From a virus (lineage: Duplodnaviria; Heunggongvirae; Uroviricota; Caudoviricetes), in the IMG/VR virus record IMGVR_UViG_2563366829_000019: a stretch of 8,258 bases of DNA. The stretch is one strand, 5' to 3'. Below the pieces are notes generated by a model that was given only the letters and a program-made list of their open reading frames with translations, was not told the DNA's origin and ran no database searches. Position numbers and translations under genes: made by a program. How positions within the stretch are numbered: the first letter of the stretch is position 1; each line of letters begins with the position of its first letter. Positions 407-7,367 of the stretch are shown here, one piece after another.

Positions 407-658
407 TTATTCTTCTGAAAAAGCAGAAAAGCCAGCTTTTATTCCGATCTCTTTCAATACCTGTAATGAAGTGACAAACTCACCGTCGCGCAAGATAAAT
501 CCGTCCGTCACTCGGGCATCCACAAAATTAATTAACGCAGCCCCATTTTTTTGCAAACACACAATGCGGTAATGACTAACAATATTTCCATTTTCAACGC
601 ACACAGCATAGAGGCCATCTTCACAAAAAATTTTACGCAGTTCTTCGATGTTCATCAT
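407..658 (-). CDS. rem: Rem-like small prophage protein, 83 aa
   Basis: 83-aa ORF starting MMNIEELRKIF with a GGAAGGA Shine-Dalgarno upstream. It lies immediately downstream of hokD, as rem does in the Qin prophage of E. coli K-12 (recalled, not searched). Confidence 0.55.
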   Translation of the reverse strand: MMNIEELRKIFCEDGLYAVCVENGNIVSHYRIVCLQKNGAALINFVDARVTDGFILRDGEFVTSLQVLKEIGIKAGFSAFSEE

Positions 659-770: not shown

Positions 771-806
771 GTTGAAAATAAAAACAAAAACCCGCCGAAG
801 CGGGTT
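771..806 (-). terminator. Rho-independent terminator at the 3' end of the hok transcript
   Basis: Seen in sequence: 7-bp stem 789..795/800..806 (AACCCGC/GCGGGTT) with a 4-nt loop, followed on the minus strand by a U-rich run (plus-strand A-run 771..788). About 70 nt past the hok stop. Confidence 0.5.
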
Positions 807-845
807 AAGTGCGGGTGCGTTGAGAATGCCTGCCACATCAGAGGT

Positions 846-867
846 GGCGAGGGATTTCTCCCTCGCC
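846..867 (-). other. stable hairpin in the hok 3' UTR (fbi-like fold-back region)
   Basis: Seen in sequence: 9-bp perfect stem 846..854/859..867 with a 4-nt loop, 8 nt past the hok stop. Hok-family mRNAs carry 3' fold-back inhibitory structure. Confidence 0.4.
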
Positions 868-874
868 GGGTCTC

Positions 875-1030
875 TTACTCCTCAGGTTCGTAAGCTGTGA
901 AGACAGCGACCTCCGTCTGGCCGGTTCGGATTCGTACCTCGCAGAGGTCTTTCCTCGTTACCAGTGCCGTCACTATGACGGTTAAACAGATGACGATCAG
1001 GGCGATTAACATCGCCTTTTGCTGCTTCAT
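875..1030 (-). CDS. hokD: Hok-family type I toxin, 51 aa (HokD/RelF-type)
   Basis: Minus-strand ORF translating to MKQQKAMLIALIVICLTVIVTALVTRKDLCEVRIRTGQTEVAVFTAYEPEE, which matches HokD (RelF) of E. coli K-12 as I recall it. AAGGAGA Shine-Dalgarno 8 nt upstream. Absent from the ORF track only because it is short. Confidence 0.85.
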   Translation of the reverse strand: MKQQKAMLIALIVICLTVIVTALVTRKDLCEVRIRTGQTEVAVFTAYEPEE

Positions 1031-1086
1031 AGCCTGCTTCTCCTTGACCTTTCGGTCCGTAAGAGGCTAATCTCTATGTGTCGCAT
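1027..1086 (-). CDS. mok-like leader ORF, 19 codons, stop overlapping the hok start (ATGA)
   Basis: Seen in sequence: ATG at 1086..1084 with GAGG 8 nt upstream, translating to MRHIEISLLRTERSRRSRL, ending in a TGA that overlaps the hok ATG. Leader resembles the plasmid R1 hok/sok leader from memory. Confidence 0.4.
   Translation of the reverse strand: MRHIEISLLRTERSRRSRL
1044..1073 (+). promoter_or_regulatory. candidate sok-like antisense promoter (TTGACC, 18-nt spacer, TAATCT)
   Basis: Seen in sequence: -35 TTGACC at 1044..1049 and -10 TAATCT at 1068..1073 on the plus strand, firing antisense across the mok-like start and Shine-Dalgarno. Confidence 0.35.
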
Positions 1087-1150
1087 AGATATGGCCTCAG
1101 ATTAATGTTAAGCGTCTTGCAGGACGCGTAATGTTAACTGGGGCTTTTCT
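1080..1150 (+). ncRNA. candidate Sok-like antisense RNA (ends approximate)
   Basis: Inferred from the promoter at 1044..1073 and full complementarity to the mok-like translation initiation region (1084..1098). A GC hairpin at 1112..1127 (GCGTC/GACGC) could be part of a terminator. Ends not defined. Confidence 0.3.
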
Positions 1151-1205
1151 CTATCTGCCTTTTGGTGTTCATGCCTGAGACAGATAGCCTCAAGCACCCG
1201 CAGTT

Positions 1206-1288: not shown

Positions 1289-1468
1289 TTACCGCCAGTA
1301 TTCAATGCACATGACCGCCATGAACACCCCTAAAAAAAGGGCATTTATATGTCCAAACATTAATATCAAAACATCAATTTTTTCCATATACCTTGCTGTG
1401 AAGATGATGGGCATACATGATGCGAACAACCAGAACGCAACAAACAAAAACTGCAATGCGTTTTTCAT
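1289..1468 (-). CDS. small hydrophobic membrane protein, 59 aa (72 aa from the upstream GTG)
   Basis: ATG at 1468..1466 preceded by AGGGGGAA at 5-nt spacing. Product MKNALQFLFVAFWLFASCMPIIF...LILMFGHINALFLGVFMAVMCIEYWR has two predicted hydrophobic segments. Sits in an AT-rich stretch; function unknown. Confidence 0.4.
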   Translation of the reverse strand: MKNALQFLFVAFWLFASCMPIIFTARYMEKIDVLILMFGHINALFLGVFMAVMCIEYWR

Positions 1469-1588
1469 TATTCCCCCTACAATCAATGTGCAATAACATT
1501 TAAACACACCTCAATTTGGCCGGACATATAAATATCTAAACCAGAAAAAATCACTTACATAGCGTTACAAACTCTTTAGTCTAAATAT

Positions 1589-2104
1589 TCATCGTAAAAC
1601 ATCCTCCACGCTTATCAGTCCATTTCGTTTCAGGTAATCTATCGCCTTCTCCGGTAATTTGCAGTCCGGCTGAGCTTTTTTCAGTTGACTGACCAGTCGT
1701 TTAACCCACATTGTTAATTCGCTAACCTGATTGCCGGATGCTGGTGGATTGTCGGCTTTACCCAGAATGGCAGCGCAGCAGGCCTCTCTGAGCACCCAGT
1801 CAACAGCATCCTTCCATGCTCCTGTTTCGACTGGCGGATTCTCACGCTTTACCTGTTCATAAAAGCGCACGGCTTTAACCAGTCCTTCTGATGTCACCGG
1901 GACTGGCGGGCCGATGAATAAGGCCTGAATTTCATAGTTCGGCCTGTCGTTACAATCCTCTTTTGTCGGTACATATTTCCAGTCACCAGCCCACGGCTTC
2001 CCCTGAAAGTCTGTAACGTCTTTTTTCACGTAGCGATATCGCCATGCAACTGGTTTTGCCTGCCCTGCCGTTTCATGCCCTTCCTGATAATTAATCTCGC
2101 TCAT
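1589..2104 (-). CDS. hypothetical prophage protein, 171 aa, Trp-rich
   Basis: Complete ORF. Its ATG (2104..2102) overlaps the stop of the upstream gene fragment (ATGA), indicating translational coupling in an operon. No family recognised. Confidence 0.6.
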   Translation of the reverse strand: MSEINYQEGHETAGQAKPVAWRYRYVKKDVTDFQGKPWAGDWKYVPTKEDCNDRPNYEIQALFIGPPVPVTSEGLVKAVRFYEQVKRENPPVETGAWKDAVDWVLREACCAAILGKADNPPASGNQVSELTMWVKRLVSQLKKAQPDCKLPEKAIDYLKRNGLISVEDVLR

Positions 2105-2258
2105 TCATCGCCCCACTCATCACAATATGCTTCGACCGGAGTTTTTCCTGCTTCATAATCATCACGCCATGCTTCAGCATCAGCAGCACTGCCACCACGT
2201 AACTCTGCATAGTCCATTAACAGTTCATGCCATGCTTCAAAACTGACGTTGTATTTAG
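2101..2258 (-). pseudogene. 3'-terminal fragment (51 codons) of a gene cut by IS5
   Basis: Seen in sequence: frame open from the IS5 boundary at 2258 down to TGA at 2103..2101, translating to ...KYNVSFEAWHELLMDYAELRGGSAADAEAWRDDYEAGKTPVEAYCDEWGDE. No start codon; the 5' part is missing. Confidence 0.5.
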
Positions 2259-3453
<1,195 letters not shown>

Positions 3454-3463
3454 TTAAAACACA

Positions 3464-5938
3464 ATGAGTAAAATCTTTATTTGCGCTGCTATTCCTGACG
3501 AACAGGCCATAAAAGAAGATAGCGCTGTTGCGGTGGCCACTGCCATTGAAGCCGGTGATGAACGTCGCGCCCGCGCAAAATTTCACTGGCAATTCCTGGA
3601 ACATTATCCGGCTGCTCAGGACTGCGCTTATAAATTTCTTGTTTGCGAGGATAAACCCGGCATACCCCGCCCTGCCCTCGATTCCTGGGATGCTGAATAT
3701 ATGCAGGAAAACCGCTGGGATGAGGAATCCGCTTCCTTTATTCCGGTCGAACCAGAATCCGATCCGATGAACGTCAATTTTGACAAGCTGTCCCTTGAAG
3801 TACAGAACGCGGTCCTGGTTAAGTTCGGTACATGTGAAAACATCACCGTTGATATGGCGATTGACGCGCAGGAATTACTGCAGGAAGACGTTGCTACCTT
3901 TGACGGGCATATCGTTGAAGCACTGATGAAAACGCCTGAAATTAACGCTATGTATCCGGAACGCAAACTGTTCGCTATCGGATGGGTTAAACACAAATGT
4001 AATCCGGGTGCCAAATGGCCAGAAATTCAGGCTGAATTACGTAACTGGAAAAAACGGCAGGACGCAGAGCGCAAAGAGACTGGAAAATACACGTCTGTTG
4101 TTGATCTCGCCCGCGCCAGAGTCAATCAACAGCACACTGAAAACTCAGCAGGAAAAATCAACCCAGTCACTGCCGCCATTTGTCGCGAATACAAGCAGAC
4201 ATGGAAAACGCTGGATGAAGAACTGGCCTACGCTCTCTGGCCTGGCGATATTGATACCGGAAACATTGACGGCAGCATCCATCGCCGGGCAAAAAATGAA
4301 GTTATCGACAAAGATCGCGAAGACTGGAAGCGCATTTCCGCATCAATGCGCAAACAACCCGATGCCGTTCGCTACGACCGTCAGACTATTTTTGGCCTTG
4401 TCCGTGAGCGTCCGATCGACATTCACAAAGATCCCGTAGCACTGAACAAATACATCACTGAATACCTGACTACCAAGGGCGTGTTTGAAGATGACGAAGG
4501 AACAAATCAGGGCACAGCTGGTACTCTCCCGTCACCAGTACCAGAAACTGATGCAGTGGAAACGGCAATGCCGGACAACGAAAAAACCGAATGCGAAGTG
4601 GAAGACGAACCATCTGTAGAGCGTGAGGGACCGTTCTACTTCCTTTTCACCGATAAGGACGGCGAAAAATACGGTCGCGCAAACAAACTTTCTGGTCTGG
4701 AAAAAGCACTGGCCCTGGGAGCTACGGAAATCACAAAAGAGGAATACTTCGCACGTAAAAACGGCACGTACTCAGGTTCACAACAAAATACTGGTGCATC
4801 TGACACGATCGCACAACCAGAGCCGGTAAAAGTTACCGCTGACGAAGTAAACAAAATTATGCAGGCAGCCAATATCAGCCAGCCTGACGCCAATAAGTTG
4901 CTTGCTGTATCACGTGGTGAATTTGTTGCAGGGATTAGCGACCCGAATGATCCGAAATGGGTGAAGGGGATTGAAACCCGCGATTCAGTGAATCAGAACC
5001 AGCAAGAAACGGAACAGAACGGCCAGAAAGCGGAACAAAACAGCCCAAATGCGTTACAAAACGAGCCAGAAACGAAACATCCTGAACCAGTGGCGCAACA
5101 GGAAGTGGAAAAAGTCTGCACCGCCTGCGGTCAGACCGGCGGCGGCAACTACCCTGATTGTGGCGCGGTGATGGGCGACGCAACATACCAGGAAACATTC
5201 GATGAAGAGTATCAGGTTGAAGTTCAGGAAGATGATCCGGAGGAAATGGAAGGCGCTGAACATCCACACAAGGAGAACACTGGCGGCAATCAGCATCACG
5301 ATAGCGATAATGAAACTGGCGAGACGGCAGATCACTCAATTAAGGTGAACGGTCATCAAGAAATCACATCCACCAGCAGGACGTGTGACCATCTAATGAT
5401 CGACCTTGAAACCATGGGAAAAAATCCTGATGCCCCGATCATCTCAATAGGTGCAATATTTTTCGATCCGCAAACCGGAGATATGGGACCGGAATTTAGT
5501 AAGACTATCGATCTGGAAACTGCTGGCGGAGTCATTGATCGGGACACCATTAAATGGTGGCTTAAGCAATCACGCGAAGCGCAATCTGCCATTATGACCG
5601 ATGAAATCCCGTTAGATGATGCACTGTTACAATTGCGGGAATTTATCGACGAAAACTCCGGTGAATTTTTTGTTCAGGTCTGGGGAAATGGAGCCAACTT
5701 CGACAACACGATTTTGCGCCGTTCATACGAACGGCAGGGGATCCCCTGCCCGTGGCGTTACTACAACGATCGCGATGTACGCACAATCGTTGAGCTGGGG
5801 AAAGCCATAGACTTCGATGCCAGAACGGCTATTCCATTCGAAGGTGAGCGCCATAATGCACTTGATGACGCTCGTTACCAGGCAAAATACGTTTCAGCTA
5901 TCTGGCAAAAACTGATCCCGAGTCAGGCTGATTTTTAA
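3464..5938 (+). CDS. RecE-like protein with a C-terminal DEDDh-type 3'-5' exonuclease domain (annotated in prophages as exodeoxyribonuclease VIII)
   Basis: Central region shares motifs I recall from E. coli RecE (KLLAVSRGEFVAGISDPNDPKWVKGIETRD; CTACGQTGGGNYPDCGAVMGDATYQETF). The last ~190 aa carry DnaQ-like exonuclease motifs (IDLETMG, WGNGANFD, HNALDDARY). No Shine-Dalgarno in the 10 bp between IS5 and the ATG. Confidence 0.8.
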   Translation: MSKIFICAAIPDEQAIKEDSAVAVATAIEAGDERRARAKFHWQFLEHYPAAQDCAYKFLVCEDKPGIPRPALDSWDAEYMQENRWDEESASFIPVEPESDPMNVNFDKLSLEVQNAVLVKFGTCENITVDMAIDAQELLQEDVATFDGHIVEALMKTPEINAMYPERKLFAIGWVKHKCNPGAKWPEIQAELRNWKKRQDAERKETGKYTSVVDLARARVNQQHTENSAGKINPVTAAICREYKQTWKTLDEELAYALWPGDIDTGNIDGSIHRRAKNEVIDKDREDWKRISASMRKQPDAVRYDRQTIFGLVRERPIDIHKDPVALNKYITEYLTTKGVFEDDEGTNQGTAGTLPSPVPETDAVETAMPDNEKTECEVEDEPSVEREGPFYFLFTDKDGEKYGRANKLSGLEKALALGATEITKEEYFARKNGTYSGSQQNTGASDTIAQPEPVKVTADEVNKIMQAANISQPDANKLLAVSRGEFVAGISDPNDPKWVKGIETRDSVNQNQQETEQNGQKAEQNSPNALQNEPETKHPEPVAQQEVEKVCTACGQTGGGNYPDCGAVMGDATYQETFDEEYQVEVQEDDPEEMEGAEHPHKENTGGNQHHDSDNETGETADHSIKVNGHQEITSTSRTCDHLMIDLETMGKNPDAPIISIGAIFFDPQTGDMGPEFSKTIDLETAGGVIDRDTIKWWLKQSREAQSAIMTDEIPLDDALLQLREFIDENSGEFFVQVWGNGANFDNTILRRSYERQGIPCPWRYYNDRDVRTIVELGKAIDFDARTAIPFEGERHNALDDARYQAKYVSAIWQKLIPSQADF

Positions 5939-5996: not shown

Positions 5997-6200
5997 ATGA
6001 GCAGCTTATTTTTAACCGAAGATGAATTGCTAATATTAACGGGCTGCAAATATGCAAGCCACCAGCGAAAATGGTTAATGGAAAACGGGCTTCCGTTCTA
6101 TACCAATCGTAGTGGCAAACCGATTGTCAGCCGGGATCTATTTACCTGCAATAAAACTTTACCACCACGCGAGGTAGAGCCGAATTTTGGTGCGATCTGA
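5997..6200 (+). CDS. small Xis-like protein, 67 aa (DUF4224-like by recollection)
   Basis: Sits directly upstream of int and its stop overlaps the int ATG (TGATG). Size, position and the N-terminal LTEDELLILTG motif fit small excisionase-like proteins paired with integrases. Confidence 0.5.
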   Translation: MSSLFLTEDELLILTGCKYASHQRKWLMENGLPFYTNRSGKPIVSRDLFTCNKTLPPREVEPNFGAI

Positions 6201-7225
6201 TGGGAAGACGAAGGAAAAATCCTGAACACGAAAAATTACCTCCAAATGTATACCCAAATAAATATAGTTATGTATGGAAACCAACATCCAGAGAATCTGT
6301 CACACTAACCGCCATCAAGGATGGTTTAGCTGCTTTATGGAAAAAGTATGAGGAAACTGTAAATAATCGCGATCGTGCAATGACATTCGGTCGCTTGTGG
6401 GAAAAATTCCTCGCCAGCGCCTGTTACAGTGACCTTAGTCCAAGAACACAAAAAGATTATCTGCAACATCAAAAAAAGTTGCTTGCCGTATTCGGTAAGG
6501 TACCAGCGGATTCCATAAAACCAGAACACATCCGTCGATACATGGACAAAAGAGGGGAGCAGAGTAAAACGCAAGCCAACCATGAAAAAAGCAGTATGTC
6601 CCGTGTTTACAGTTGGGGGTATGAGCGAGGGTACGTCAAGGCTAACCCATGTGCAGGTGTAAGTAAATTCAAGGCCAAAAACCGCGAACGATATGTAACC
6701 GACAAAGAATACCAGGCAGTATTAAGCGTTGCACCTCTTCCTGTTTTTATCGCAATGGAAATTGCCTATCTGTGTGCAGCGAGGGTTTCCGATGTGTTAT
6801 CGCTGAAATGGGAACAGATTGGAAACGACGGGATATTCATCCAGCAAGGGAAAACCGGAAAAAAACAGATAAAAGCATGGAGTCCACGATTACAGGCAGC
6901 GATCGAAAAAGCAAAACAGTTACCAAAATCTGCCTATGTGATCAGCAATCAATACGGCAACCGATATATGTACAAAGGCTTTAACGAAATGTGGGTAGAA
7001 GCAAGAAATCGTGCTGGAAAAATTTCAGGTATTTTAACCGACTTCACCTTTCATGATCTGAAGGCGAAAGGAATTTCAGACTATGAAGGAAGCAGCCGGG
7101 ATAAGCAACTTTTCTCTGGTCACAAAACCGAAGGGCAAGTGCTAATCTATGACAGGAAGGTTAAAGTTTCACCAACACTTGATGTCCCGTTACCTGAAAA
7201 TATTCCAAGAAAATATTCCAAGTAA
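6200..7225 (+). CDS. int: lambda-family tyrosine integrase
   Basis: 341 aa. Aligns by eye to the lambda Int catalytic region: Arg in ARVSDVLSLKWEQI, Lys in QGKTGKK, His in GHKTEG, Tyr in LIYDRK. The HxxR box reads H-D-L-K. Lies next to the 3' end of the tRNA. Confidence 0.85.
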   Translation: MGRRRKNPEHEKLPPNVYPNKYSYVWKPTSRESVTLTAIKDGLAALWKKYEETVNNRDRAMTFGRLWEKFLASACYSDLSPRTQKDYLQHQKKLLAVFGKVPADSIKPEHIRRYMDKRGEQSKTQANHEKSSMSRVYSWGYERGYVKANPCAGVSKFKAKNRERYVTDKEYQAVLSVAPLPVFIAMEIAYLCAARVSDVLSLKWEQIGNDGIFIQQGKTGKKQIKAWSPRLQAAIEKAKQLPKSAYVISNQYGNRYMYKGFNEMWVEARNRAGKISGILTDFTFHDLKAKGISDYEGSSRDKQLFSGHKTEGQVLIYDRKVKVSPTLDVPLPENIPRKYSK

Positions 7226-7277: not shown

Positions 7278-7367
7278 TGGCGGAGAGAGGGGGATTTGAA
7301 CCCCCGGTGGAGTTGCCCCCACTCCGGTTTTCGAGACCGGTCCGTTCAGCCGCTCCGGCATCTCTCC
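7278..7367 (-). tRNA. serU: tRNA-Ser (anticodon CGA)
   Basis: Reverse complement folds as a 90-nt class II tRNA: acceptor stem GGAGAGA/TCTCTCC, anticodon stem CCGGT/ACCGG with loop CU-CGA-AA, long variable arm GTGGGG-GCAA-CTCCAC, T-arm GGGGG-TTCAAAT-CCCCC, 3' CCA encoded. Confidence 0.9.

Follow-up and report, generated by a model that had tools for sequence, protein, structure and literature searches.

The 8,258-nucleotide (nt) stretch of IMG/VR virus record IMGVR_UViG_2563366829_000019 (the window) contains, on its minus strand between positions 1289 and 2258, a cluster made up of the 3' fragment of a gene for an acidic protein of 58 amino acids (aa), an intact gene for a 171-aa protein and a 59-codon open reading frame, ORF59, which may code for a small membrane protein. 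The region is what remains, at the promoter-distal end, of a series of small early accessory genes of a Rac/Qin-type lambdoid prophage at serU, truncated by a deletion associated with an insertion sequence (IS) of the IS5 family. The explanation we favour, with a probability of about 0.6, is that these are stranded early accessory genes of the Ea22/exo-xis kind, with products directed at the host. All three parts are present where an earlier note on this DNA had placed them.

The original arrangement can be seen in an IS-free relative, strain 266917_2 (L001), where the order is P ... 58-aa gene, 171-aa gene, hokD, rem, DUF968, RusA and Q. Going upstream from the 58-aa gene, the same strand of this relative contains genes for a DUF7167 protein, a 118-aa protein, an Ead/Ea22-like protein and DUF4406, DUF977 and DUF1627 proteins; beyond these, replication protein P, a DnaT-like protein, YdaT and Cro are encoded, and the repressor gene is oriented divergently. 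The intact phage has the cluster on its early-right strand, with replication gene P on one side and antiterminator gene Q on the other, and the order of reading is Ead/Ea22-like, 118-aa, DUF7167, 58-aa, 171-aa, ORF59, hok/sok, rem, DUF968, rusA and Q. The earlier note had assigned it to a nin-like region, and this position between P and Q agrees with that. In Rac/Qin-type prophages, this mosaic cluster is a common component of the early-right accessory region.

The IS5-family element (2259–3453, minus strand) was delimited from its inverted repeats, its sequence and the RefSeq annotation of an identical genome. It codes for an ISKpn26-type transposase (coding sequence 2405–3385) and has terminal inverted repeats at 2259–2274 and 3438–3453. 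One end abuts the 51-codon fragment of the 58-aa gene, in keeping with the IS5 truncation of the upstream gene that had been proposed; the other end is 10 nt from the ATG of an exonuclease gene (3464). The flanks of the element differ, being TTAG (2255–2258) on one side and TTAA (3454–3457) on the other. Because the flanks are unequal and there is no target-site duplication, the element marks a deletion joint, not a simple insertion. Compared to the IS-free relative, the stretch reaching from codon 7 of the 58-aa gene to the exonuclease gene, with the replication and immunity regions inside it, is missing. An IS5-associated deletion has thus truncated the cluster, and the prophage in the window is a defective remnant.

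By removing the upstream genes, the deletion separated the cluster from its native upstream promoter region. A consensus scan of the coding strand between 1200 and 2258 reveals no promoter-like and no terminator-like site, although the scan is a strict one, which also missed the hok promoter, the -35 hexamer of which falls below its threshold. The lack of such sites suggests that, in the intact phage, the genes of the cluster are ordinary members of the early-right transcript and not morons expressed from the lysogen. The only obvious incoming transcription in the window would be that of the IS5 transposase gene, which is oriented into the cluster. Judging from these sequence features, the cluster is probably silent or weakly expressed in the remnant.

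The fragment of the 58-aa gene (2101–2256, minus strand; 51 of the 58 codons and the stop codon, identified from translations and a PHROG match) translates to KYNVSFEAWHELLMDYAELRGGSAADAEAWRDDYEAGKTPVEAYCDEWGDE, followed by the stop. The full-length gene, which the earlier note had suggested seeking in a relative without IS5, was recovered from the relative described above; it codes for 58 amino acids starting with MADFGST (WP_000753058.1). The form in the window is without these seven codons, the start codon and the ribosome-binding site, and an ATG internal to the fragment, at 2217, is not preceded by a Shine-Dalgarno sequence. The protein matches phrog_519, annotated as of unknown function, over residues 1–58 (E = 2e-22), while scans against Pfam, NCBIfam and PADLOC give no match at E ≤ 1. 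It contains 15 aspartates and glutamates versus four lysines and arginines, as well as three tryptophans, which gives it a net charge of about -11 in 58 residues. In the family alignment, a DYxAGK motif, Trp37 and Trp55 are invariant and are surrounded by conservative substitutions. An AlphaFold2 model of a full-length homologue with 98% identity (P0308) is a three-helix bundle, with a predicted local distance difference test (pLDDT) score of 83. Homologues with 44–60% identity are present in strictly virulent Vi01-like (Ackermannviridae-like) phages, in podophages and in temperate phages of several enterobacterial genera. The product of the gene is a conserved, strongly acidic three-helix protein, and the gene is coupled by an ATGA overlap to whichever gene fills the next slot. 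The 58-aa gene and the DUF7167 gene next to it were compared as possible paralogues, and this relationship was rejected.

The intact 171-aa gene (1589–2104, minus strand; identified from its sequence, the IS-free relative and PHROG) codes for a protein identical to WP_001289993.1. Its ATG (2104–2102) overlaps the TGA of the 58-aa gene (2103–2101) as ATGA, as the earlier note had observed in proposing translational coupling, and it has a Shine-Dalgarno sequence of its own, GGGG, 6 nt 5' of the ATG. Six of the 171 residues (3.5%) are tryptophans. The protein matches phrog_660, another family annotated as of unknown function, over residues 2–171 (E = 2.4e-74), with no Pfam, NCBIfam or PADLOC model matching at E ≤ 1. 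Hundreds of homologues exist for both the 58-aa and the 171-aa genes and, judged by these sequence comparisons, both are clearly genes beyond chance.

Three portable modules make up the mosaic 171-aa protein. A word-seeded search finds 1615 relatives, and an exhaustive phmmer search of 1.84 billion representative proteins gives 453 matches, in which the three modules align independently of each other. Module A (residues 15–66, approximately) is a small beta domain that includes a PVAW motif; modules B (residues 67–115, approximately) and C (residues 116–171, approximately) are helical. Elsewhere, the modules are fused to Ead_Ea22 coiled coils at the amino-terminus or to DUF551 as a tail, and occasionally to Rv2179c-like exonuclease, dATP/dGTP pyrophosphohydrolase or YqaJ domains. 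Ead_Ea22 is present in six of 56 homologues that share modules, and in one of the homologues (P0082) the order is Ea22, module A and module B. The mosaic structure is also visible at the DNA level: there are joints at about 2056, 1830, 1780, 1750 and 1670, and separate segments of the gene match separate phages, of the Stx1, Stx2 (Shiga toxin), P2-like, rV5-like and T7-like kinds. Many related contigs are without the segment from about 1830 to 1750 or from about 1830 to 1670, leading to in-frame forms of 132 and 85 amino acids; these internal deletions indicate that the gene is structurally very plastic.

An AlphaFold2 model of the 171-aa protein, calculated with an alignment of 50 sequences, has pLDDT values of 78–84 for residues 21–60, in module A, only; the remainder consists of low-confidence helices and the mean value is 55. 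When the model was compared with the PDB using Foldseek, nothing was found below E = 1. Structurally nearest to it among the viral models of BFVD are a Peduovirinae protein that is uncharacterised, an Ead/Ea22-like protein (E = 2e-3) and gp45 of phage N15. PDB searches by single sequence and by profile returned matches to designed TIM-barrels, which are spurious, and a weak match to a helicase loader; these were discarded.

The slot occupied by the 171-aa gene is filled by a different kind of gene in the Stx2 phage ArgO145. There, in the early-left (exo-xis) region, the DUF7167 gene and the 58-aa gene are followed by an Ead/Ea22-like gene, with the same four-base ATGA overlap. The ArgO145 proteins of this slot match the Ead_Ea22 model (E = 3.5e-39) and what the slot protein shares with the 171-aa protein is the amino-terminal sequence MSEI(N/D)YQ only. 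From these comparisons, the 171-aa gene is best described as a "headless" occupant of the Ea22 slot: it retains the 5' end and the coupling of an Ea22 gene, is without the coiled-coil domain, whether through loss or because it never acquired one, and has tails from the Ea22 module pool.

ORF59 (1289–1468, minus strand) has 59 codons, translates to MKNALQFLFVAFWLFASCMPIIFTARYMEKIDVLILMFGHINALFLGVFMAVMCIEYWR and is a candidate gene for a small protein with two transmembrane helices. It was delimited using its Shine-Dalgarno sequence, its hydrophobicity and a shuffle test, and it is not called in RefSeq. An AT-rich spacer of 120 nt (1469–1588, minus strand, defined from the sequence and the promoter and terminator scan) separates it from the stop codon of the 171-aa gene, and the hok leader starts (at 1199) 89 nt past the stop codon of ORF59. 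Both the distance of about 120 base pairs, in an AT-rich stretch, and the placement directly upstream of hok had been described correctly. The Shine-Dalgarno sequence AGGGGG (1478–1473) is 4 nt 5' of the ATG. Two hydrophobic stretches, of residues 5–24 and 33–55 approximately, and a grand average of hydropathy of +1.2 agree with the membrane character that the earlier note attributed to the product. Since there are no distant homologues of ORF59 and no sign of purifying selection in the available alleles, its coding status is unproven. Its position is constant, always between module C and the hok leader, except where an IS intervenes. Neither Pfam, PHROG, NCBIfam nor PADLOC contains a match to it.

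The competing explanation is that the AT-rich sequence between 1200 and 1590 is a non-coding spacer or hok upstream sequence, in which a T-rich composition has left a frame open; to this we give somewhat less than an even chance. In dinucleotide shuffles of this segment, an open reading frame of at least 59 amino acids starting with ATG occurs in 19% of cases, so the length of ORF59 is unremarkable. Frames of at least 50 amino acids with two hydrophobic windows occur in 1.2% of the shuffles, and in just 0.27% when a Shine-Dalgarno sequence is also present, which argues for a gene. The 391-nt segment is found in 1585 of 5426 complete E. coli genomes (about 29%), always with at least 95% identity; RefSeq calls no gene at ORF59 in 40 genomes sampled across the match ranking, while some other annotators call a membrane protein. 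The frame is intact in 115 of 117 IMG/VR contigs that were picked by an upstream anchor sequence, blind to the ORF. Among 23 haplotypes, the eight variable sites are all nonsynonymous and none is synonymous, with exchanges between hydrophobic residues that are conservative. The ratio of nonsynonymous to synonymous substitution rates is uninformative for both ORF59 and the 171-aa gene, since the available alleles are at least 95% identical.

Several further observations weigh against translation, together with the lack of synonymous variation just mentioned. Frameshifted and truncated alleles of ORF59 exist. The word-seeded search finds no homologue with a full-length frame below about 86% identity, less similar matches being truncated or rearranged alleles of the same sequence, and tblastn gives three phage records only. 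The segment always accompanies the hok leader, even where the hok coding sequence has been displaced. A run of seven thymines at 1332–1338 is the frame-shift point of several database alleles (P0139, P0140 and P0143–P0145). Two phage records annotate an open reading frame on the opposite strand (1305–1496, plus strand), one of them as "hornerin". It is an asparagine- and lysine-rich low-complexity mirror of the hydrophobic frame, without a Shine-Dalgarno sequence; it was rejected as a candidate gene and is probably a mis-annotation. Between 1200 and 1590 there is no Rfam match at E ≤ 1, and the z-score of the predicted RNA fold is marginal for the minus strand (z = -2.2) and not unusual for the plus strand (z = -0.77). 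Taken together, we put the odds that ORF59 is translated a little above even. It is probably a genuine small two-helix protein of the inner membrane, transcribed by read-through and limited to this phage lineage.

For the 58-aa and 171-aa proteins, the homologues in virulent phages, the equivalence to the Ea22 slot and the Ea22-type modules point to accessory proteins of early lytic growth or of the decision phase. Ea22 proteins are mosaic, early and pro-lysogenic, with a host partner and mechanism that are not known, and the proteins of the exo-xis region act as early factors directed at the host (PMC10834534, PMC8614690). By analogy with those of lambda and Stx phages (Ea22, Orf63 and Orf73), the two proteins may be accessory factors that bind proteins, have no enzymatic activity and are made during early lytic growth or upon induction; they would act on host proteins and so tune the lysis-lysogeny balance or host takeover. 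The acidic 58-aa protein could be an inhibitor or a mimic and the 171-aa protein a modular adaptor. We attach moderate to low confidence to such an early, non-enzymatic, host-directed role.

A number of points weigh against this interpretation. The mechanism would be one drawn from analogy and context. The 171-aa protein has no Ead_Ea22 Pfam domain (at E ≤ 1), nor is it similar to the solved carboxy-terminal domain of lambda Ea22 or to any PDB chain. The cluster is in the early-right (nin) region, not in the exo-xis region where Ea22 has been studied. As to the silence of the cluster in the remnant, read-through from the IS5 transposase gene is possible.

An alternative for the 58-aa protein, perhaps acting with the coupled downstream protein, is that of an early anti-restriction or anti-defence inhibitor, either a nucleic-acid mimic or an enzyme inhibitor. 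The strong negative charge combined with conserved aromatic residues, the compact helical fold of the model, the early position of the gene and the retention of the family in virulent phages of the Ackermannviridae-like kind, in podophages and in temperate phages that infect several enterobacterial genera would all suit such a role. However, the protein matches no known anti-restriction, Ocr/ArdA-type or Acr protein in sequence or structure, acidity alone is weak evidence, and the gene in the window is truncated and has no start codon; we consider this explanation unlikely. Quite unlikely is a combined interpretation, in which ORF59 would be a genuine inner-membrane protein working with the hok/sok leader, for example by modulating Hok or as an exclusion factor, while the 58-aa protein and its ATGA-coupled partner would form a conserved early module inhibiting a host defence or DNA-handling enzyme.

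The earlier note regarded the cluster as the best candidate in this DNA for an undescribed function, with a defence, exclusion or toxin module in view. Lambdoid accessory slots do often carry such cargo, the cluster adjoins the hok/sok toxin locus, ORF59 would be a small membrane protein like several exclusion proteins, and homology gives no exclusion where proteins are uncharacterised; nevertheless, it is very unlikely that the cluster is such a module, expressed from the lysogen, as PADLOC-DB 2.0 has no family matching any of the three products at E ≤ 1, the scan shows no promoter-like site for the genes on the coding strand, they are part of the early-right operon in the intact phage, strictly virulent phages have members of the 58-aa family, the 171-aa modules come from the Ea22-type mosaic pool of early genes, and the frequent internal deletions of the 171-aa gene in relatives fit a maintained defence poorly. 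The model searches match the proteins to no known defence, toxin, replication or Nin family. As the earlier note had found, no product is recognisable: Pfam, NCBIfam and PADLOC yield nothing, and PHROG only families of unknown function, for the 58-aa and 171-aa proteins. Membership of ordinary phage families had been named there as an argument against an undescribed function, and it is largely to ordinary accessory families, themselves without known function, that these proteins belong. The stranded Ea22/exo-xis-type genes thus remain the explanation that we prefer.

Downstream, the cluster is bounded by the leader and promoter of hok (1028–1233), leaving hokD outside the operon. The hok mRNA leader with the mok/sok region (1028–1199, minus strand) matches Rfam RF01794 over model positions 1–157 of 157, with a score of 106.7 bits. 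The promoter, read by eye on the minus strand, consists of a -35 hexamer TTGCGG (1233–1228), a spacing of 16 nt and a -10 hexamer TAGAAT (1211–1206), with transcription starting at 1199. The hokD toxin gene itself (875–1030, minus strand), mentioned here for context, was identified by Pfam (HOK_GEF, E = 1.2e-23) and RefSeq. In the Qin-like phage PhiR42_1 (L083), a block of an IS, flxA, ydfV, relB and relE lies at the exact junction of the hok leader and the hok coding sequence; positions 1–556 and 3830–4551 of this phage sequence align with 489–1044 and 1029–1754 of the window, respectively. Its orphan hok leader still adjoins ORF59, about 3.3 kb from hok. This alignment suggests that the relBE-hokD arrangement of Qin-type prophages arose by insertion into a hok/sok locus that was formerly complete. 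A match to the Salmonella prophage small RNA IsrK (785–866, minus strand), at 26.6 bits and so below the Rfam gathering score of 50, overlaps the 3' end of hok and its terminator, and is probably just the terminator hairpin. For rem and the 92-aa gene downstream of it (62–340 and 407–658, minus strand), phage records conflict, with "Antitoxin Rem" in some and "toxin to Rem" in others; neither has a Pfam match, and Rem has a negligible match to the SocB toxin (E = 0.064).

Three complete E. coli chromosomes, among them that of strain MS 196-1, are 100% identical to the window across 1100–2400. The prophage remnant is located at a tRNA-Ser gene (7278–7367, from ARAGORN and the RefSeq annotation of an identical genome), beside mtfA. 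According to the same RefSeq annotation, its plus strand contains an integrase gene, a DUF4224 xis-like gene and a gene for an 824-aa exonuclease, followed by the IS5-family element. On the minus strand, the element is followed by the cluster, hokD, rem and the 92-aa gene and, past the end of the window, by DUF968, rusA and Q. The integrase gene (6200–7225, plus strand) is marked as frameshifted by RefSeq in a genome identical to the window over 1100–2400, which fits a decaying prophage. The exonuclease (3464–5938, plus strand) has a Pfam match restricted to residues 643–814, to an Rv2179c-like 3'-5' exoribonuclease domain; its amino-terminal 640 residues or so contain acidic and glutamine- and asparagine-rich stretches and have no Pfam match.

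The cluster is already known, in the sense that it is catalogued yet uncharacterised, and it contains nothing beyond routine lambdoid-prophage content. In public databases, 988 contigs have the exact sequence of the 171-aa protein and at least 1000 each have those of ORF59 and of the 58-aa protein, labelled as hypothetical, prophage or membrane proteins; none of the papers searched in full text contains the three peptide strings. As a stranded remnant, the cluster is of little significance for this window, and it belongs with the many lambdoid early accessory genes that are still uncharacterised. It may be useful to those working on Ea22 and exo-xis or on small membrane proteins that a 58-aa acidic protein is common to temperate and virulent enterobacterial phages, that translation of its gene is in every case coupled to that of an exchangeable gene of the Ea22 type, and that, of the complete E. 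coli genomes, about 29% have an unannotated two-helix ORF alongside the hok leader, although none of these three leads opens a long-standing question.

When the cluster is compared with known systems, ORF59 resembles Hok-type type I toxins in being short, hydrophobic and beside hok, and its predicted two-helix hairpin resembles the topology of class II holins. Hok-type toxins have a single helix; ORF59 matches neither HOK_GEF nor any other Pfam family, neither an antisense RNA nor an Rfam element was found between 1200 and 1590, and, unlike class II holins, ORF59 is outside any lysis cassette. With the lambda nin genes (ninA to ninI), the cluster shares its location between the replication genes and Q, its small and often overlapping genes and transcription from the early-right promoter. 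It differs from them in having no match in Pfam or NCBIfam, including the Nin families that those libraries hold, and in a content of the Rac/Qin type (hok, rem, DUF968 and rusA). The DUF551 proteins (PF04448; for example, YfdS of CPS-53 and Ea22 variant V2) are linked to the 171-aa protein by some homologues (such as P0046) in which modules A and B are followed by DUF551 instead of module C; the 171-aa protein itself does not match DUF551, and its module C is a different helical sequence.

The closest comparison is with the Ead/Ea22-like proteins (PF13935; lambda Ea22 and its Stx variants). The 171-aa protein differs from these in that the defining coiled-coil Ead_Ea22 domain is absent (no Pfam match at E ≤ 1), and with it the coiled-coil part, a tetrameric one, that Ea22 requires for its pro-lysogenic activity (PMC10834534), in its dissimilarity to the solved carboxy-terminal domain of lambda Ea22, and in the location of its gene in the early-right nin region instead of between exo and xis. 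What it has in common with them is the slot, ATGA-coupled after the 58-aa gene, and the MSEI(N/D)YQ start. Its modules A, B and C are carboxy-terminal parts of true Ead_Ea22-domain proteins, and an Ead/Ea22-like protein is the second-best BFVD neighbour of its model and the best one with a family name. Finally, its family shows the same domain-swapping mosaicism as has been described for Ea22 (PMC10834534).

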